NCBI GenBank assembly: GCA_042576165.1
Contig: JBHPBZ010000003.1
Coordinates: 1-34,574 of the forward strand
DNA length: 34,574 bases
Reading direction: 5' to 3'
Source: Candidatus Babelota bacterium
GTDB lineage: Bacteria; Babelota; Babeliae; Babelales; UASB340
Every line of letters starts with the position of its first letter. Position 1 is the stretch's first letter. The translations under genes were made by a program, and so were the position numbers. The notes beneath the pieces are model-generated. The model ran no database searches and was not told where the DNA came from. It worked only from the letters and a program-made list of their open reading frames with translations. Of the stretch, positions 9,245-16,377 are shown piece by piece.

Positions 9245-11302
9245 TTATTTTTGTATATAACAATTCACTATGTCGTCTTCTCTCCAGTCAGTAAAACCAT
9301 CGCAAACGAAACCACATTCATAACCAGCATGAACTTGAGCAACAACCTTACCTTCTTTTTGCAAACTAGTAATGCGACCTTGCCCAACAATTTTGCCTCT
9401 GCGCATACATTCAACTTTGTTCCCCTTAGAAACAACACCTTCTTGCACACCACAACCAGCAACAATTCCTATTTTTTTAATATCAAATACTTTTTTGACT
9501 AAAAGTTGTGAAACTTTTTTCCAAACCTTTTCAACCTTTTTAGTCTTTTCTAAAATCTCTTCTAGATACTCAATCGCTCTGTAAATAATATCATAAATTT
9601 CAACTTTAACACCTCGAGTTTTAGCAAGAGAAACAGCATTTTTTTCTGTTTTAATATGTAAACCTAAAATGATCGAACCTGTTGAAGCTGCCATTTCTAT
9701 ATCGCTTTCAGAAATATCGCCTACTCCTATTTGAACAATACAAATTGATGAATAACCTTTTTTTAGTTTTTTCATCAATTTTAAAATTGAGCCCTCAAGA
9801 GCTTCTTTTGAGCCACGAGTATCTGTTTTTATAATTAAGTTTATTTGATTATCAATACTATCTTTTAGCGTGAATTTAGCTTGTGACCCAGATCTTGATG
9901 CAGCAGAAATGAAAGTATTTTTGGAAGACTTTGCTTTCAAGTATTCTTCTTTGGAGACAACTTGTAACCAGTCCCCAATCTCTGCAAAACCGTCAAAGCC
10001 AACAACCTTTACAGGAATGGAAGGACCTACTTCTTTTATTATTTTATTAAAACTATTTACTAATACACGAACTCTTCCCGTTCCAGAACCACATATAAAA
10101 AAATCTCCACGCTTAATCGTCCCATCAACACATATTACAGTTGCAACAGGTCCATGACCTTTCTCTAATTTTGACTCAAGAACAAAAGCCTTTGCGCGCA
10201 TTTTTGGTTCAGCCTTCAAGTCCATCATTTCTGCCTGAAGAACTATCATTTCCAAAAGATCGCCTACTCCTTCTCCAGTCTTTGCTGAAATAGGAACGCA
10301 AACAACTTCTCCACCCCAATCCTCAACAATTAAATCTTGATCAGCAAGCTGACGCTTAACTGTTTGCAAAGCAGTAGAAGATGAGGCTTTATCAATTTTG
10401 TTTATAGCTACAATGATAGGAACAGAAGAATCTTTTGCGTGCTTAATAGCCTCAATAGTTTGAGGTTTAACCCCATCATCAGCAGCAACAATTAATACTG
10501 CAATATCTGTAATTTTTGCACCACGAGATCGTATAAAAGAAAAAGCCTCATGGCCCGGTGTATCTAAAAATACGATTTTCCCATGAGAACTATCAACCTC
10601 ATATGCACCTAAATGCTGAGTAATACCACCTTTTTCTCTTGAAGCAGTATTCATTTTTCTAATAAAATCAAGAAGAGTTGTTTTTCCGTGATCAACATGC
10701 CCCATAACGACAACAATCGGCCAACGCTTCAACCCTTGATCTTGGCGAGTCTTTTCTACCTTAGGGCTTGAAAGTTCCTCTTTCGGATTTTTAATAGTTG
10801 CATCAATTCCAAACTGTTTTGCCAAAGCAATAATAACCTCAACAGGTAAAATATTATTCCTATTGCAAGCCATACCGCTTTTCAACAAAGCAACAATTAG
10901 ATCTCCTGAACTTTTCCCCATAACATCAGCCGCCTGAAAAAGTGGCATATTTTTTTCTATAACAATTTCAGTAATATCTTTCCTAACTTCTGGTAATGTT
11001 TTCGATTTTATAAAGACTCTTTTCTGAACATCCTTCTTAAAGCCACCACTCGCAGGCTTTACCACTTTTTTTATAGCCCCAAGCTCTTTTTTTACAGGCG
11101 CAATCTTAGCAGGAATAGGTTTCTTTTTAACCACTTCACGAGCAACTTGCTTTTTTACGCCTAATTTTTTTTCTATGTATGCAATACCTTCTTCAGGAAT
11201 AACAGACATATGACTAGAAAGATCTATCTTAGTCTTACTTAATAAGCCAAGAAGCTCTTTACTCGAAATTCCAAATTTTTTTGCAGCCTCATAAACCCGC
11301 AT
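9245..11302 (-). CDS. infB: Translation initiation factor IF-2
   Basis: MRVYEAAK N-terminus (ATG at 11302 with AGGA RBS), [31 protein letters not shown]. Confidence 0.97.
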
Positions 11303-11368
11303 GCTTATCCTATATAATTGATGAAAAATAAAATAGCACCCACACACCATACATAAAAAAGGATACTT

Positions 11369-12439
11369 TTACTCTTCTGCCAAAAATACTTCTTCTTCAT
11401 TCTTATCAAAACCACCTGGACTAGAAATTACATCTTGTAGTTGAATTTCAACCCCAGTCAATTTTGATGCCAATAATATATTTTGACCTTTTCTACCAAT
11501 AGCAATTGAACGCTGGTCTTCCGCCAACCAAACAACTGCCTTATTATCCGAAACCAACTCAACCTTATCAACCTCTGCAGGCTTTAAGCTAATTTTAACT
11601 AAATCCTCAGTAGAATCAACCCATTCAATTAAATCAATTTTTTCTTTTCCAAGCTCTCTCAAAATAGGTTTAATTCTAGAACCACCAACCCCAACACATG
11701 TTCCAACCGGATCAATTTCCTTGCTGGTTGAAATTACAATAACTTTTGTTTTATATCCAGCAATTCTTACAATTTTTTTAATTTCAACAATTCCTTCAAA
11801 AACCTCTGGAATTTCAATTTCTAAAAGACTCTTAACAAAGTCTGCAGATACTCTATCTAAAATAAGCTGATAATCACCTTTAGCAACAGCTAACACATCT
11901 TTCAATAAAGCTCTAATAGGATGGCCAATACGAATATTCTCTAGCGGAATGCAATTTTCACTAGATAAAATCGCCATAACATCACCAACCTTAACCACAA
12001 ATCCAATACGCTCTCTTTTGTGTACAATTCCACTTATAACTGTGCCTTTTTTTTCAATAAACTCTTTATAGACAGCATCTTGCTCTAAACTTCTAATTCT
12101 GCTTGCAATAAATTGCTTTGCAGCCAAAATCTCAATACGACCAACATCTTTTTGTTCAATAGGAACATTAATAGAATTGCCAATTTCAGCATTGGAATCG
12201 AAAGCCCGAGCTTTACGCAAAGATATTTCATCAAAGGGGCTTACAACATGAGAAACAATATTTTTTTCAGCATAAACTTCAACCTCTCCACTTTTTTTAT
12301 TATACAAAGCACTTAAAATTGAATCAGGAAACTTCTTCATAAACGCAGAAAGTACTCCCTCACAAACAACCTCTACAACCTTTTCTTTATCAAGGCCTCG
12401 TTCTTCAACTAGCCCTTCAATAACAGCGGAAAGTTTCAC
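11369..12439 (-). CDS. nusA: Transcription termination/antitermination factor NusA (short form)
   Basis: GRIEILAAKQ, S1 and KH domains, DPVGTCVGVGGSRI, AIGRKGQNILLASKLTG; upstream of infB. Confidence 0.96.
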   Translation of the reverse strand: MKLSAVIEGLVEERGLDKEKVVEVVCEGVLSAFMKKFPDSILSALYNKKSGEVEVYAEKNIVSHVVSPFDEISLRKARAFDSNAEIGNSINVPIEQKDVGRIEILAAKQFIASRIRSLEQDAVYKEFIEKKGTVISGIVHKRERIGFVVKVGDVMAILSSENCIPLENIRIGHPIRALLKDVLAVAKGDYQLILDRVSADFVKSLLEIEIPEVFEGIVEIKKIVRIAGYKTKVIVISTSKEIDPVGTCVGVGGSRIKPILRELGKEKIDLIEWVDSTEDLVKISLKPAEVDKVELVSDNKAVVWLAEDQRSIAIGRKGQNILLASKLTGVEIQLQDVISSPGGFDKNEEEVFLAEE

Positions 12440-12509
12440 TTTATATTTACCCTAATATTTATGTTTGAACAATTTAGCTAAGAATTAATCAACAGACAAA
12501 CAGAACTAA

Positions 12510-12538
12510 AGCTTACCTTAAGTATAGTTTAAGGTCAA
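12510..12538 (-). promoter_or_regulatory. Candidate sigma70 promoter for the nusA-infB operon
   Basis: On the minus strand TTGACC (12538-12533), 17-bp spacer, TAAGCT (12515-12510). Confidence 0.4.
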
Positions 12539-12724
12539 AACCAAAAAAGTGAAGTCTCCTTTGATTTTTTTCCTTTTTGGTTTATGTGGATTTTTTTAAA
12601 AAACTTCCACACCCATTATTAATTTATATATATATATAAATATATATAGTAATAGATGGGGCACTTTTTTGTTGATAACTCATTTTTTTCGGGTGAAAAC
12701 TGCCGTCTGGTAGAGCTATTCGTG

Positions 12725-12767
12725 TTCCGATAAATTGTTCATAACTTGTTCATAACTTGTTCATAAC
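12725..12767 (-). repeat. Left array: 3 x 11-bp TTGTTCATAAC plus terminal TTCCGATAAA
   Basis: Units at 12735-12745, 12746-12756 and 12757-12767; reverse complement of the right array. Confidence 0.97.
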
Positions 12768-12864
12768 TTTTTTTATTGTTCGATATTGCCGTCCCATAGC
12801 ACTTTACTACAGGGCCGCCGCTGTAACCCCCCTATTTAAGGAGGTATTCAAGGAGAGACAAAAA

Positions 12865-12918
12865 GTTATGAACAAGTTATGAACAGGTTATGAACAAGTT
12901 ATGAACAATTTATCGGAA
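12865..12918 (+). repeat. Right array: 4 x 11-bp GTTATGAACAR plus terminal TTTATCGGAA
   Basis: Units at 12865, 12876 (ends in G), 12887 and 12898; inverted relative to the left array. Confidence 0.97.
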
Positions 12919-12965
12919 TAGAAATGTTCCTGCGGATTTGTTTTTTGATTTATTCTAATTGTGAT

Positions 12966-13637
12966 TTATTTTGAGTTCTTTTTAAGATTTTTGAGGATTT
13001 TTTTCATATCTTCCCATACGTTTTTTTTTGCATTAGGATTTCTTAAAAGATAAGCTGGATGAAAGGTTGGAATTACTGTATAACCATTAAAATTAAAAGC
13101 CATTCCTCGTGCCTTTGTGATTTTTATGGATTTGCCTAATAAGGCTTGGGTTGCGCAAGAACCAAGGGTACATATTATTTTGGGTTTTATGATTTCAATT
13201 TCTTTAAATAGAATTAATTTTTTGCAAGTCTCGCTTTCTTGTGGAAGAGGAAGTCTGTTGTTTGGTGGGCGACATTTTACAACATTTGAAATATAAATAT
13301 CTTCTCTTTTTAATTCCATTGCTTCAATAATTTTTGTTAAAAGTTTTCCAGCTCTTCCGATAAATGGTATTCCTTGTATGTCTTCGTCCTTTCCTGGACC
13401 TTCTCCTATAAGCATTAGTTGTGCATTTGTATTTCCGTGTCCGAATACAATTTGAGTTCTGCCTTGTTGTGACAGGGGACATTCTTGGCAGTTTTTGTAT
13501 TTTGTATAAATTTTTTCTAATAGTTTTTTATTTTTCTCTTTGTTAACTTTTGTTTTTTCATCATCTTTATACAAAAATCCGGATGGTTGTTTTTTTAAAA
13601 AGTTTAAATAGTTTTTAATTTCTTTTATTTTTGTCAT
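12966..13637 (-). CDS. udg: Uracil-DNA glycosylase family 4 (Fe-S)
   Basis: CQECPL, IGEGPGKDED, PFIGRAG, NVVKCRPPNNR, TFHPAYLLR. Confidence 0.94.
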   Translation of the reverse strand: MTKIKEIKNYLNFLKKQPSGFLYKDDEKTKVNKEKNKKLLEKIYTKYKNCQECPLSQQGRTQIVFGHGNTNAQLMLIGEGPGKDEDIQGIPFIGRAGKLLTKIIEAMELKREDIYISNVVKCRPPNNRLPLPQESETCKKLILFKEIEIIKPKIICTLGSCATQALLGKSIKITKARGMAFNFNGYTVIPTFHPAYLLRNPNAKKNVWEDMKKILKNLKKNSK

Positions 13638-13685: not shown

Positions 13686-15098
13686 TTAACTTATCTTTTC
13701 TGGTTTTTCTAATTTATCAATATTTTTGTTATTGCGTGTTAATTTTATATATTTTTTTAAAAATTCAATCCATTTGGTTTTTTGAGCAAATATTGTTTTA
13801 GGATAAGATGAATGTATTTTCTTTTTTGGATAATAGAAAGATAGCCCCGATGCTTTTGGAAGATTTGGTCCACTTGTGTTTGCAATTATAGTTTGATTAA
13901 TGGTTTCTATTCCTTTTAATAAAAGATTTTGAAGACTATCTATTTTAAATTCGGTATAAATTTTACTGTCCAGTTTTTTGCTTTCTGATAATAAGCTTTG
14001 ATAAAAATGCTTATGATCTACATAGTTTTTATTGTCAAAAATGGTTGTGAGTTTGTCACTAGTTCTTATTTTTTTTAGTAACTCAATAATTTTTGTATTA
14101 TTAGATTGATTTAGTAAGTTAATTAAAAAGCTTGATATTTTGTTAAGGCAAGATTCAAGTTCGCTAAATTTTTCTAGATCGACAGCTGATTGGGTATGAT
14201 CTGCATAAGAGGTACTGTATTGTTTCCCATATGCTTTAACTATATTTATAGCAAATTCTTTAGGCGTTAGTGTTTTATTGGTGAATGGTTTTAAGACTGT
14301 TGTATAATTCCATCCGCTTCCAGGTTCTACTTCTTCAGATCCAACCATATATTTTGCGTCTTTTTTGATTTGTGTTCCAATTTCAAACATTGCCATGTGG
14401 CAGGCATCCATACCTAAAATATCTATTTTATTTCCTCTTAAAAGATCGGATTTTATTTTATGCAATGTCTTGCGTAATTCTTGGTTTGTTATATAGGTTT
14501 CAAAAACTTCGTTGAAAGCAATTCCGCGATCCTTTTTAGATTTTCTATTCAGTTCTAATAATCCTGTTTGTGAATTTATTGAAAAAATTTGATTTGAATA
14601 TTGAGAATCTTTTTTGCCCCAAATGGAAGGATCTTCTATCCCTGAGCCATGATTCCAAAGAATCAAGGCATGTTTTTTTGCTGGGTAATTTGTAACAGCC
14701 CATTCAGCAAAGTCGTACAAATTTTGCGGAGTTCCACTTATGCTTGCGGGAGAATCTTTTTCTAATTGCATTAAGTTTGCTCGTTCTTTTTCTATATAAT
14801 AACGGGCAATTTCGTTTTTTCCGTAAGTATCTTGTTGTATTAATATATTTAGATTTTTATTAGAACCGACTTTCATCATTTGTATTATATTGTTGATTGA
14901 ATCATTATATAAATTGTTATTTGATGTTATATAAACCATGAAATTCCAATCCTTGATGCATTTTTTTGGGGTTGATGTTGTTGGTTTTAAATCTAGTGGT
15001 TTTATTTCTAACTGATTGGCGTTAATATTAAATATTAGTTGTGTAATAGTAATTAAAACAACTCTTTTTATTGAAATCCTTTGAATAGACTTAAACAT
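13686..15098 (-). CDS. Clostripain-family (peptidase C11) cysteine protease, secreted
   Basis: WNFMVY-NNL, LILWNHGSG (catalytic His), GMDACHM (catalytic Cys), SEEVEPGSGWNY, GLSFYYP; ATG at 15098 preceded by GGGGAG; signal-like N-terminus. Confidence 0.88.
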   Translation of the reverse strand: MFKSIQRISIKRVVLITITQLIFNINANQLEIKPLDLKPTTSTPKKCIKDWNFMVYITSNNNLYNDSINNIIQMMKVGSNKNLNILIQQDTYGKNEIARYYIEKERANLMQLEKDSPASISGTPQNLYDFAEWAVTNYPAKKHALILWNHGSGIEDPSIWGKKDSQYSNQIFSINSQTGLLELNRKSKKDRGIAFNEVFETYITNQELRKTLHKIKSDLLRGNKIDILGMDACHMAMFEIGTQIKKDAKYMVGSEEVEPGSGWNYTTVLKPFTNKTLTPKEFAINIVKAYGKQYSTSYADHTQSAVDLEKFSELESCLNKISSFLINLLNQSNNTKIIELLKKIRTSDKLTTIFDNKNYVDHKHFYQSLLSESKKLDSKIYTEFKIDSLQNLLLKGIETINQTIIANTSGPNLPKASGLSFYYPKKKIHSSYPKTIFAQKTKWIEFLKKYIKLTRNNKNIDKLEKPEKIS

Positions 15099-15219
15099 AT
15101 TCCATCTCCCCTTTTGTTTTTGAATCACATTTTTTATGTTTTGAATTTTATCAATTCAAGAATAAATAAATTTTATCAGAGTTATGTTTGTTATTTCAAT
15201 AAATTTGTTTCTAAAGTGA

Positions 15220-16377
15220 TTATTTAACTAGTCCAAGTATTCCTAGAGTAAAAGCTAGATAAAAACTTAATTGAAAATCTAAGAAAAATAATTGTATTGG
15301 ATTAAATAGTAAGATTATTATGCACAATAAGCATAGCATGTGTAAAAAACTTGTTTGTTGATTATAGAATTTACCCAATTCATAAAAAATAAATATATAA
15401 AATGCTCGATAAAACGATATACTTGACCAGCTCAGCAGGCTGTAAATCATGCAAATAGATATTAAGACAAGTTGTTTTAGATATAAGCTAATCGGAATAA
15501 GGCTTAAAAGTATTTTCCAAATTAAAATGAATAAAATTACATGTAACCCTGAACGAGCAAGGTAGTGTGTAATTCCCCATTGGCCAAAATTACGACGAAG
15601 TTGATTGTTTTTGCCCGCTTTTTTATTTCCAAGGAAAATATATGAAAAATAATAAAAAGTTTGGGGTAGGAGTTTTTGGCGAATGTTTAGTAGTAGTTTA
15701 TTCTTCTTTTGATTTATCCATCTAAAAACATTGAACTTAGGTTTGTATTTGTTTTTGTAAAATAGTTTTTTGCAAAAGATTGAACACAAAACATTTTCTT
15801 TGATTTGATAATCAAGATAGTTTGGTTTTTTAATTAATGTTTGTTTAGGTTGTAGGTTTGGAATTTTGAAGTTTGTTAGTTTTATTTTGTCTCCAATTTC
15901 AATAGAACTTTTTGTTTGTGTGTAGTAATTAATATTAATATTTTTTATAGGAAGTTTTTTTGTTGTATAAAAAAATTGTTTTTTTTTATATGGAGTATTA
16001 TACGGGATGTATTTTATGCTCTTTATTTTTTTCAGGTTTAATTTGAATATTTCGCCATCTGTATTTTGCCTTTGTTCTTTATTTAGTACGATTGCTGTTG
16101 ATTTTAATCTTTTGTTTTGTAGATTTTTTAATAAACTTTGGTGATATTGCTTTTGATGTTGAATTAAGAATATTCCTGAAAAAAATATTGTTGAGCATAA
16201 AACTATTTGTAGACCATTTACTGTTGTATGATCTTTAAATAAAAATAATAAAATTCCTGCAAATATTATTGTTATTGCTAGGATTAAATTATTTAAACAA
16301 AAAAAAGTTGAACAACAAATTCCTAATAAAAGACTGAATTGAGGGAGAAATAATGGAGAAAGTTTATTTATGAACAT
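15220..16377 (-). CDS. comEC: ComEC/Rec2-family competence protein (short form)
   Basis: N-terminal TMs, OB-like region, GITHYLARSGLHV, RA and NP---DFQLSF motifs; no metallo-beta-lactamase domain. Confidence 0.8.
   Translation of the reverse strand: MFINKLSPLFLPQFSLLLGICCSTFFCLNNLILAITIIFAGILLFLFKDHTTVNGLQIVLCSTIFFSGIFLIQHQKQYHQSLLKNLQNKRLKSTAIVLNKEQRQNTDGEIFKLNLKKIKSIKYIPYNTPYKKKQFFYTTKKLPIKNININYYTQTKSSIEIGDKIKLTNFKIPNLQPKQTLIKKPNYLDYQIKENVLCSIFCKKLFYKNKYKPKFNVFRWINQKKNKLLLNIRQKLLPQTFYYFSYIFLGNKKAGKNNQLRRNFGQWGITHYLARSGLHVILFILIWKILLSLIPISLYLKQLVLISICMIYSLLSWSSISFYRAFYIFIFYELGKFYNQQTSFLHMLCLLCIIILLFNPIQLFFLDFQLSFYLAFTLGILGLVK

Follow-up and report, generated by a model that had tools for sequence, protein, structure and literature searches.

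The analyzed window, i.e., the whole stretch of DNA under study (34,574 nt), belongs to a 779,270-bp assembly (completeness 61%, G+C content 28%) of a Candidatus Dependentiae (TM6, Babeliales) bacterium. The bacterium is uncultured. A 526-bp intergenic region between nusA and a uracil-DNA glycosylase superfamily gene (udg) contains two arrays of short repeats, an isolated box and an AT-rich tract (Table 1). The whole window gave no match to Rfam families, so the GC-richer spacer between the arrays does not correspond to a known RNA.

Table 1. Features of the predicted replication origin, the adjacent genes and dnaA (positions are those of the window, except for dnaA, which is located on contig C26).
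Feature	Position	Strand	Remarks
infB	9245-11350		after nusA; then lpxK
nusA	11369-12439	-	conserved left neighbor; Pfam NusA_N, KH_5, KH_NusA_C
AT-rich tract, presumed DNA-unwinding element	12612-12657		89% A+T over 46 nt
DnaA-trio-like repeats TAG TAA TAG	12647-12655	+	GAT AAT GAT read 3'-to-5' away from the box
Spacer between trios and box, 14 nt	12656-12669		GC cluster (GGGGC), then T run
Isolated DnaA box TTATCAACA, R1-like	12670-12678	-	adjoins the unwinding element
Gap between isolated box and left array	12679-12724		length conserved among relatives
Left outer cap, degenerate in-phase unit TTATCGGAA	12725-12733	-	
Left array, 3 x TTATGAACA	12736-12766	-	11-bp period; same orientation as the isolated box
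Inter-array spacer, 99 bp	12767-12865		length conserved, sequence not
Right array, 4 x TTATGAACA	12866-12907	+	11-bp period; orientation opposite to left array
Right outer cap, degenerate in-phase unit TTATCGGAA	12910-12918	+	
udg	12966-13637	-	conserved right neighbor; Pfam UDG
C11 peptidase gene	13686-15128		follows udg; Pfam Peptidase_C11
dnaA	C26:5715-7172		only copy in the assembly; Bac_DnaA 223.7 bits, Bac_DnaA_C 90 bits

Direct reading and a repeat finder both recovered seven perfect TTATGAACA units, three in the left and four in the right of two inverted arms, with 11-bp spacing, which leaves 2 bp between neighboring 9-mers. The left units read TGTTCATAA on the plus strand (starts 12736, 12747 and 12758), and the right ones start at 12866, 12877, 12888 and 12899. 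The arrays, their degenerate caps and the isolated TTATCAACA are thus as the first-pass annotation, made from the sequence of the window, had described them. Its figure of 97 bp for the gap is right within its definition of the arms: the arms delimited by the repeat finder (12718-12772 and 12871-12925; 55 nt each, 91% complementary) lie 98 nt apart, and the innermost full boxes are separated by 99 bp. The distance from the isolated box to the first full array box is 66 bp (start to start). Eight boxes of the form TTATNAACA are found inside 238 bp, a DnaA-box cluster of the kind that characterizes an oriC.

The clustering is not due to chance. The window contains 8 copies of TTATGAACA, against 1.01 ± 0.99 expected, a number reached in none of 100 shuffles. 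A genome-wide count, suggested as a check in the first-pass annotation, gave 21 copies in the whole assembly, 7 of them in the arrays (within 172 bp), where the 14 copies outside the arrays lead to an expectation of 0.003; likewise, seven of the eight genomic occurrences of GTTATGAACA are in the arrays. When the intergenic region was compared with its own genome, the sole matches were the region itself and its inverted arm, so it is present in a single copy. Two findings that the annotation had named as fatal to a DnaA-box reading, dispersal in the manner of a MITE and a canonical box cluster elsewhere, are therefore both absent from the assembly, in which no cluster of TTWTNCACA (at least three within 200 bp) was found.

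The isolated box is accompanied by the elements of an origin core. Within the intergenic region, A+T content peaks in the 40 nt from 12615 onward (97.5%), and the tract lies beside the box, as is typical of oriC; the relatives have an equivalent tract in the same place. Three or four TA[A/G] triplets occupy the same position in nearly all relatives compared. The spacers of the relatives (five counted) are 13-14 nt long, GC-rich, end with a T or A run and lie at the same place. The orientation of the box relative to the trios presumably matches that in B. subtilis. A trio consensus (3'-GAT-5') and rules for the spacer have been published, and the search program for the basal unwinding system (BUS) permits a spacer of up to 16 bp (PMC8287927); here, three or more trios whose middle base is A are placed within 16 bp of the box and are followed by AT-rich DNA, which corresponds to the BUS core.

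The chromosomal position of the locus also points to an origin. The cumulative GC skew of the window reaches its minimum in the 12001-13000 bin, though the nearest genes on both sides are encoded on the minus strand. Two near-complete relatives were sampled in 20 stretches of 20 kb each. On the 790,653-bp contig of G022, every 20-kb stretch sampled between 276,501 and 652,000 has a negative skew and those from 656,001 onward have a positive one, with the arrays at ~655.1-655.3 kb; in G029 (1,228,744 bp) negative values extend to 595,000 and positive values begin at 596,001, with the arrays at ~595.3-595.7 kb. In the window as in both relatives, the arrays thus coincide with a change of the skew from minus to plus; dnaA of the two relatives lies nearer the other switch, the presumed terminus.

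The udg-nusA gap has the same layout in 35 of the 36 relatives with a readable region upstream of nusA, in the order AT-rich tract, TA[A/G] trios, GC-rich spacer, box, ~57 bp, four-box array, ~100 bp and inverted array; the architecture that the first-pass annotation proposed to look for in related genomes is therefore general. No arrays were seen upstream of nusA in G032. In nearly all relatives the isolated box is placed 65-69 bp ahead of the array, and the inter-array spacer (20 genomes) is 96-130 bp long and has no conserved sequence. NusA is encoded beside the arrays in 18 of 18 of the relatives' loci and UDG in 17 of 18, and the chromosomal position of the arrays is conserved across the phylum. 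At the homologous positions most relatives carry the perfect canonical TTATCCACA, and together with the skew this bears out the earlier proposal of a lineage-specific variant of the DnaA box. An origin beside dnaA was rejected, since the flanking intergenic DNA of this gene (78 bp and ~32 bp) is too short and contains no boxes. In 29 genomes, the 400 bp upstream of dnaA contain essentially no DnaA boxes (four isolated hits), which leaves no second locus for following co-variation. From this anatomy, region 12612-12918 is predicted to be the single chromosomal oriC of the bacterium. Literature matches for Dependentiae and oriC included no description of this udg-nusA origin, and those for TM6 and the DnaA box consisted of the Chromulinavorax paper and its preprint only.

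The first-pass annotation considered A at box position 6 to be the key change. This base is indeed present; the change that distinguishes the genome is G at position 5 together with A6, because TTATCAACA, which has A6 alone, is common in the relatives. A change from C to G in the boxes runs against the expectation from AT mutation pressure. Searches of the literature for the variant words TTATGAACA, TGTTCATAA, TTATGCACC and TTATCGACA gave no DnaA paper among the matches listed, which seemingly were unrelated primers or oligonucleotides.

The same annotation had advised inspecting domain IV of DnaA, and this proved informative. Base-specific contacts of DnaA are made by R399, P423, D433, H434, T435 and H439 (PMC2533591, PMC7561715). 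Alignment to E. coli domain IV (1J1V), in which RDHTTV corresponds to RNHSTV here, placed Asn at the position of D433 (residue 450 of the 485-residue open frame), so that the Asp of canonical box reading is replaced. R399, H434 and H439 are kept; P423 is replaced by Gln and T435 by Ser, at positions that also vary in relatives with Asp433. Asp433 is near-universal, and the four species in the hit list whose DnaA structure has been solved all have it; Asn433 is located at the start of the recognition helix. At the codon level, D to N is a G-to-A change, of a kind favored by AT pressure. In a 50-row DnaA alignment, column 433 alone partitions the rows perfectly, and it alone changes in all seven lineage comparisons, always from D to N. 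No literature was found on D433N in DnaA, and a search for Asp433/His434/Thr435 gave one, unrelated match.

Across the phylum, residue 433 tracks the box word. Of 261 genomes, DnaA was read in 60 and the origin in 54; Asp433 was read in 39 genomes, and the remaining D calls denote absence of the Asn codon pattern. In the 54 genomes read for both traits, G-rich arrays (a threshold of 40%, fixed after the data had been seen) occur in none of the 35 genomes with Asp433 and in 15 of the 19 with Asn433, and G boxes, counted from hand transcription, make up 3/308 and 98/166 of the boxes, respectively. About 11 changes between D and N were placed on the tree, the first version of which contained nine rows picked for their boxes. 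Seven independent pairs on well-supported branches gave, over 200 random pairings, a mean of 5.9 concordant, 0 opposite and 1.1 without difference (median sign-test p 0.031). In an unselected sample of 41 genomes, Asn was found in five, and all four of these with a known origin have G-containing boxes. As a test of prediction, genomes chosen solely by their G5 arrays (G111, G112, G164, G178 and, from genus g26, G248, G250 and G253) all proved to have Asn.

[quoted passage not shown] On the protein side, the Asn codon pattern was present in 27 of 261 genomes and confirmed inside dnaA in 22, this census having given nine false or unassignable matches (G074, G135, G146, G164:C110, G167, two in G176, G200 and G218). 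Five separate Asn433 lineages have TTATGAACA as their main or only array box (G000; G014 with G181; G111; G164, in which G boxes are 5/9; and G173), and this word is also among the boxes of genus g26. Two further Asn433 genomes gave no counts: arrays were not found in G054 (55% complete), and G026, with udg at a contig end, was left out of the origin reading.

Four genomes with Asn433 have C/A boxes only or nearly so (G boxes 0/8 in G175, 0/8 in G176, 0/10 in G256 and 1/9 in G083). Asn is therefore insufficient for G boxes and remains functional with canonical boxes, which suggests that it probably came first and was permissive. For the same reason, a permissive or broadened specificity seems to fit the data better than a clean switch. 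The phylum contains the stages Asp with CC, Asp with CA, Asn with CC/CA, and Asn with GA, GC or CG boxes. The co-variation thus points to a change in the specificity of DnaA, and the joint reading, i.e., an oriC whose DnaA has had its specificity altered through Asn433, is given a probability of about 70%.

The most serious competitor, which we consider unlikely but worth weighing, is an ordinary oriC with unchanged DnaA specificity, in which the G/A boxes drifted neutrally and were homogenized by gene conversion, D433N being an unrelated, AT-driven replacement. It can draw on the Asn433 genomes with purely C/A boxes (G175, G176 and G256), on the codon change, which is G to A in a genome with a G+C content of 28%, and on the arms, whose 91% complementarity beyond the boxes shows that homogenization takes place. 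Moreover, box position 5 is reportedly without effect on affinity in E. coli and M. tuberculosis (PMC5043019), so Asp433 might tolerate G5 as well. Drift does not readily explain, however, why G-rich arrays and G boxes are so unevenly divided between Asp and Asn genomes, why G arrays are confined to the latter among 261 genomes (barring the one G171 box), why five separate Asn433 lineages arrived at the same TTATGAACA, or why no other DnaA column behaves as 433 does.

A very improbable alternative is that the locus titrates or recycles DnaA in the manner of datA or DARS, the true origin being elsewhere, e.g., in the unassembled 39% of the genome. Oriented DnaA boxes likewise cluster in datA and DARS (PMC5742627), completeness of the assembly is only 61% and dnaA is far from the cluster; against this, the skew switches from minus to plus exactly at the cluster, both in the window and in the two near-complete relatives, its AT-rich tract and trios adjoin a box, the assembly contains no further box cluster, and the flanks of dnaA offer neither the length nor the boxes for an origin. 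Still less credible is an iteron origin, a parC/parS-like centromere or a MITE bound by a protein other than DnaA, part of which the first-pass annotation had kept as its alternative: inverted arms built from short tandem repeats are a typical trait of iterons and centromeres, yet the element is present in one genomic copy, is bordered by nusA and udg with no rep, par or transposase gene adjacent, keeps its chromosomal position across the phylum and is homologous to arrays of perfect DnaA boxes in the relatives.

Initiation could proceed as follows. ATP-DnaA would form two oppositely oriented head-to-tail oligomers, one on each array, an arrangement for which the comparative evidence lends support to the symmetric scaffold suggested at first reading. 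The left oligomer and the R1-like box would engage the trios and the AT tract, and the duplex would open toward nusA. With Asn433, a G at box position 5 or 6 would become acceptable to DnaA and would probably be favored. The Asn substitution would have come first, after which gene conversion or slippage, combined with selection, would have altered the tandem boxes in concert, with TTATCAACA as an intermediate tolerated by both forms of DnaA.

Knowledge of box recognition by DnaA comes from a single crystal structure and from mutants. To our knowledge, natural changes of the DnaA code are few (Thermotoga, T5 of epsilonproteobacteria and G3 of mycobacteria), and each is single and ancient, so that cause and effect are inseparable. 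Dependentiae offer replicated natural experiments, with one base-contacting substitution at ~11 places in the tree, and the strong regularity of their origins (8-10 near-identical boxes) allows the preferred word to be taken directly from the genome. A recognition rule thereby becomes testable, in which Asp would accept C or A, as donors of an amino group, and Asn would accept G. In practice, origin finders that seek TTATCCACA-like words would score this origin poorly. More tentatively, and with odds that we place somewhat below even, Asp433-to-Asn may be a recurrent natural re-coding of the DnaA-DNA interface that arose ~10 times in Dependentiae, in which broadened reading was followed by conversion of entire origins to another preferred word (in at least five lineages, TTATGAACA); this would be initiator-origin co-evolution via a permissive intermediate, leading to partial incompatibility with sister lineages. 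Should the association be due to drift only, the finding shrinks to another copy of a known origin type. The origin itself is known in kind; what is new is Asn433 in its own DnaA and the association of this residue with G boxes.

Within the phylum, an origin of Chromulinavorax destructans (Dependentiae) was predicted at 651,641-652,233 of its 1,174,272-bp genome from GC skew and TTATCCACA boxes; the available part of that account makes no mention of the architecture, the udg-nusA position or a box variant (PMC6561590). The closest parallel for the box word is found in epsilonproteobacteria, which also show a lineage-specific preference at box position 5, an obligatory T attributed to N-terminal residues of helix 5 in domain IV, with binding tested (PMC5043019). 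In that group, Asp433-His434 is kept, other helix-5 residues differ and the change is one ancient clade-wide event (PMC5043019), whereas in Dependentiae Asp433 itself changes, ~11 times in one phylum, as judged here from sequences.

The origin core resembles the BUS of Bacillus subtilis in its box, GC-rich spacer, at least three middle-A trios (3'-GAT/AAT-5') and AT-rich tract, and differs from it in that a single box is proximal, where a tandem pair is commoner, and in a spacer of 14 nt, against a reported peak of 10-13 bp (PMC8287927). The overall plan is that of E. coli oriC, with (i) a terminal unwinding element, (ii) an adjoining R1-like box, (iii) a gap, (iv) a head-to-tail array in the same orientation as that box and (v) an opposite array (PMC13643167, PMC5742627), and it matches the Left and Right DnaA-oligomerization regions. 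The boxes within an array are 2 bp apart, within the 2-4 bp of E. coli (PMC5742627). The gap takes the place of the IHF site of E. coli oriC; the IHF consensus, taken as WATCARNNNNTTR, had no match in 12679-12735, the genome encodes one HU/IHF-family protein, and HU-mediated bending of the gap region is possible. The E. coli middle R2-like box has no counterpart in this genome. The two origins further differ in their neighbors (here udg and nusA), in the box word, in DnaA residue 433 and in the place of dnaA, which is here far off and, in both sampled relatives, closer to the other switch of the skew. Finally, E. coli mixes high- and low-affinity sites, whereas seven of the nine array units described here are near-identical copies of one strong word.

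The 526-bp gap between nusA and the uracil-DNA glycosylase gene is filled by an element that we identify, with a probability of about 95%, as the chromosome origin. The first-pass annotation had described two inverted arrays of a variant DnaA box with degenerate caps, as well as an isolated box, and all of these units were confirmed by direct reading and with a repeat finder: both direct families are spaced by 11 bp, and the two 55-nt arms, inverted relative to each other and 98 nt apart, are 91% complementary. The isolated box is separated from the DnaA-trios by a spacer of 14 nt.

Features of the predicted origin and its neighbours in the window
Feature	Coordinates	Strand	Basis or remark
nusA, then infB and lpxK	11369-12439	minus	left neighbour
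Trios TAG TAA TAG (3'-GAT AAT GAT-5' leading off from the box)	12647-12655		direct reading
Isolated box TTATCAACA	12670-12678	minus	direct reading
Degenerate caps TTATCGGAA, in phase with each arm	12725-12733 and 12910-12918		direct reading
Left array, 3 x TGTTCATAA	starts 12736, 12747, 12758		direct reading of sequence
Inter-array spacer	12767-12865		length, not sequence, kept among relatives
Right array, 4 x TTATGAACA	starts 12866, 12877, 12888, 12899		direct reading of sequence
Uracil-DNA glycosylase gene (udg), 3' end facing the element; then C11 peptidase gene	12966-13637	minus	right neighbour

The box cluster far exceeds chance. The array box word occurs 8 times in the window (1.01 +/- 0.99 expected; 8 reached in 0 of 100 shuffles), and, as the first-pass annotation had anticipated, its copies cluster at the element: 7 of the 21 counted over the 779,270-bp assembly fall within 172 bp, for which the density elsewhere in the assembly predicts approximately 0.003 copies. 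The same 172 bp contain 7 of the 8 assembly copies of GTTATGAACA. The sole additional TTATGAACA of the window (16368-16376), placed within coding sequence at the comEC/yajC junction, is probably due to chance, and no Rfam family matched anywhere in the window. The similarity of the arms runs beyond the caps into the flanks (12718-12735 and 12908-12925), which suggests recent homogenisation (gene conversion) between them. The left arm is devoid of the inner fourth unit typical of most relatives, a T run is found at 12769-12777, and the spacer has a G+C content of 44% (vs. 28% for the genome).

The assembly (81 contigs, 28-29% G+C, estimated completeness 61%), of which the window is the entire contig C3, belongs to a bacterium whose NusA has its closest homologues among named public records in Candidatus Dependentiae (TM6, Babeliales). 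No true origin located elsewhere was found in the 61% complete assembly, which lacks 39% of the genome: it contains no cluster of canonical TTWTNCACA boxes (at least 3 within 200 bp) and no other box cluster, and its sole dnaA gene (contig C26, 5715-7172) is flanked by only 78 bp and approximately 32 bp of non-coding DNA. Dispersal of the element in many copies, in the manner of a MITE, was not seen in the assembly, from which the same 39% is missing.

GC skew in the window is negative at 2-13 kb and positive at 13-20 kb, and the cumulative curve reaches its lowest point in the 12001-13000 bin, even though both flanking genes are on the minus strand. With the usual G-rich leading strand, a switch from negative to positive skew marks the origin. 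In the Dependentiae genome G022 (790,653-bp contig), the skew of the sampled 20-kb stretches is negative throughout from 276,501 to 652,000 and positive from 656,001 onwards and round to 257,000, while the arrays are found at approximately 655.1-655.3 kb; in G029 (1,228,744 bp), it is negative to 595,000 and positive from 596,001 to 1,100,000, with arrays at approximately 595.3-595.7 kb. The arrays of both genomes are thus located at the minus-to-plus switch. Their dnaA genes (G022, 198 kb; G029, 47 kb) are closer to the other switch than to the arrays.

The dnaA gene of Dependentiae is situated roughly across the chromosome from the origin: approximately 60-80 kb from the plus-to-minus switch (the presumed terminus) in G022, and within approximately 175 kb of it in G029, where this switch is bracketed between approximately 1.10 Mb and the contig ends. 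In G020, G025 and G027, a distance of 590-690 kb separates dnaA from the arrays on contigs of approximately 1.1-1.5 Mb. Essentially no DnaA boxes (four isolated matches) are present in the 400 bp preceding dnaA, as read in 29 genomes (loci L074-L103), and the autoregulatory boxes usual before dnaA elsewhere seem to be missing in the phylum.

Related genomes were searched for this architecture, as proposed with the original description. The intergenic region matched 18 of 40 relatives in blastn, and direct reading revealed the same architecture upstream of nusA in 35 of the 36 relatives having the region assembled (the locus is unassembled in G003, G007, G013 and G026); the sole exception is G032, whose region contains no arrays upstream of nusA. 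In the first-round loci the arrays neighbour genes for NusA (18/18) and uracil-DNA glycosylase (17/18). Among 51 loci of named records, 21 are from Dependentiae (L023-L042 and L072), 17 of them with arrays; no arrays were found in L032, L034 and L036, whose records carry little or no sequence upstream of nusA, or in L038, which has a full flank. The common plan comprises: (i) an AT-rich tract followed by three or four TA[A/G] triplets; (ii) a GC-rich spacer of 13-14 nt with a terminal T or A run, followed by one box; (iii) a head-to-tail array, usually of four boxes, in the orientation of that box and 65-69 bp from it (start to start); and (iv) a spacer followed by an oppositely oriented array of four or five boxes. 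In the window and 19 relatives the latter spacer is unconserved in sequence and has a length of 96-130 bp, mostly 97-100 bp, which places the innermost boxes approximately ten helical turns apart.

Most relatives carry perfect TTATCCACA boxes, mixed in some genomes with TTATCAACA; one group uses TTATCCACC, TTATGAACA is present in the window's genome (G000) and G014, TTATCGACA in G018, and TTATGCACC alternates with TTATCAACC in G029. The base-contacting residues of DnaA domain IV, which the first-pass annotation had proposed for inspection, do differ: in an alignment with the E. coli domain (1J1V), RNHSTV of the window's DnaA stands opposite RDHTTV, so that Asp433 (E. coli numbering) is replaced by Asn. 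The alignment places Asp at this position in E. coli, B. subtilis, Aquifex and M. tuberculosis. D433 is counted among six base-specific contact residues (PMC2533591 and PMC7561715, citing Fujikawa 2003) and the pair 433-434 is described as highly conserved (PMC5043019). Asn433 occurs in 5 of the 41 genomes of an unselected set (G000, G014, G018, G026 and G029), four of them have a readable origin, and these same four are the ones whose boxes contain G at position 5 or 6 (G boxes). In a 50-row DnaA alignment, column 433 alone changes in all seven lineage comparisons (D to N every time), and only this column partitions the rows perfectly.

TTATCCACC has C at position 9 (11-mer unit TTATCCACCAC) and was found in the origins of G019 (L119), G022 (L145), G033 (L132), G036 (L147), G040 (L146), G200 (L251) and G256 (L249), all with Asp433 except G256; G146 (Asp433) carries five TTATTAACA boxes. 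In this phylum, then, the box is labile at each of positions 5, 6 and 9.

The association was approached from both sides in 261 Dependentiae genomes. Three 11-bp-spaced units, the first with G at position 5, were matched in 16 genomes. DnaA was newly read in nine: Asn is present in G111, G112, G164, G178, G248, G250, G253 and G256 (the last a genus-mate included without a pattern match), and Asp433 in G171, which matched through just one G box out of its nine. Codons for [R/K]-N-H-[S/T]-T-V-x-[H/Y] were matched in 33 genomes, a census from which only a minimum count of Asn genomes follows; by coordinates, 22 matches fall within dnaA, five more from genus g26 are the same codon string (dnaA coordinates being confirmed for the other 22 only), and nine were rejected as false or unassignable. 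Arrays with G at position 6 occur phylum-wide only in G018, G084 and G086, all with Asn433; the remaining eight matches of this search were single, with a frequency equal to that of a reversed-pattern control. Among further Asn433 genomes, G boxes make up 6/10 in G173 and 9/9 in G181 (both TTATGAACA), 0/8 in both G175 and G176 (CC and CA at positions 5-6) and 0/10 in G256 (TTATCCACC). In three Asn433 genomes of f12 genus g55, TTATCGACA accounts for 1/9 boxes in G083 (L246), 4/9 in G084 (L244) and 6/9 in G086 (L245), the others being TTATCAACA; the series looks like snapshots of unit-by-unit origin conversion.

Both traits were read in 54 genomes. With G-rich defined as at least 40% G boxes, a threshold set after the data had been seen, Asp433 genomes comprise 0 G-rich and 35 not G-rich, and Asn433 genomes 15 and 4, respectively. 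G boxes account for 3 of 308 boxes in Asp genomes vs. 98 of 166 in Asn genomes, as transcribed by hand from a sample partly chosen by box type. On a DnaA tree calculated with the recognition-helix columns left out, 11 changes of the D/N state are counted, and seven independent pairs on well-supported branches gave means of 5.9 concordant, 0 opposed and 1.1 without box difference (median sign-test p 0.031 over 200 random pairings).

G-rich arrays thus occur only with Asn433, which is also found with C/A-only boxes, and on the tree G256 branches off before the G-box members of its genus, and G175 and G176 stand beside G178. The simplest order is therefore Asp, Asn, then G boxes: (i) Asp433 would have acted on CC boxes, at times drifting to CA; (ii) Asp433 would have changed to Asn; and (iii) G-containing boxes may then have arisen and spread among tandem units by conversion. 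In each of the lineages G000, G014/G181, G111, G164 and G173, TTATGAACA independently took over as the main or only word of the arrays, and genus g26 has it among its boxes too, which suggests preference beyond mere tolerance. A possible chemical rationale is that the carboxylate would take hydrogen bonds from amino groups on C or A, and the amide could donate to O6/N7 of G. Against a change of specificity, AT pressure favours the D to N direction. Overall, Asn433 probably alters which bases DnaA accepts at positions 5 and 6 of the box; that its preference has truly switched, with co-evolution, is a more tentative proposal, which we rate at slightly below even.

The left end of the element matches the order of the basal unwinding system, outlined in PMC8287927 as a box, a GC-rich spacer of at most 16 bp, at least three trios (central A, consensus 3'-GAT-5') and an AT-rich tract. 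The whole plan matches E. coli oriC as portrayed in PMC13643167 and PMC5742627: after the unwinding element, the left-region boxes R1, R5M, tau2, I1 and I2 share one direction, a site for a bending protein separates R1 from R5M, the right-region boxes are reversed, 2-4 bp separate the boxes of an array, and two head-to-tail ATP-DnaA sub-complexes have opposite orientation. From this match we infer that two oppositely oriented DnaA oligomers would form on the arrays, the left of which, with the R1-like box, may open the AT tract in the direction of nusA. Unlike in E. coli, the gap between the isolated box and the left array contains no match to the IHF consensus; the assembly encodes one protein of the HU/IHF family. 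HU is able to replace IHF in E. coli (PMC13643167). For the Dependentiae isolate Chromulinavorax destructans, PMC6561590 describes an origin predicted on the basis of TTATCCACA boxes and GC skew. The origin itself is of a known kind. The freely accessible literature searched contained no report of Asp433 being repeatedly replaced by Asn in association with G-containing boxes, and this recurrent link appears to be new.
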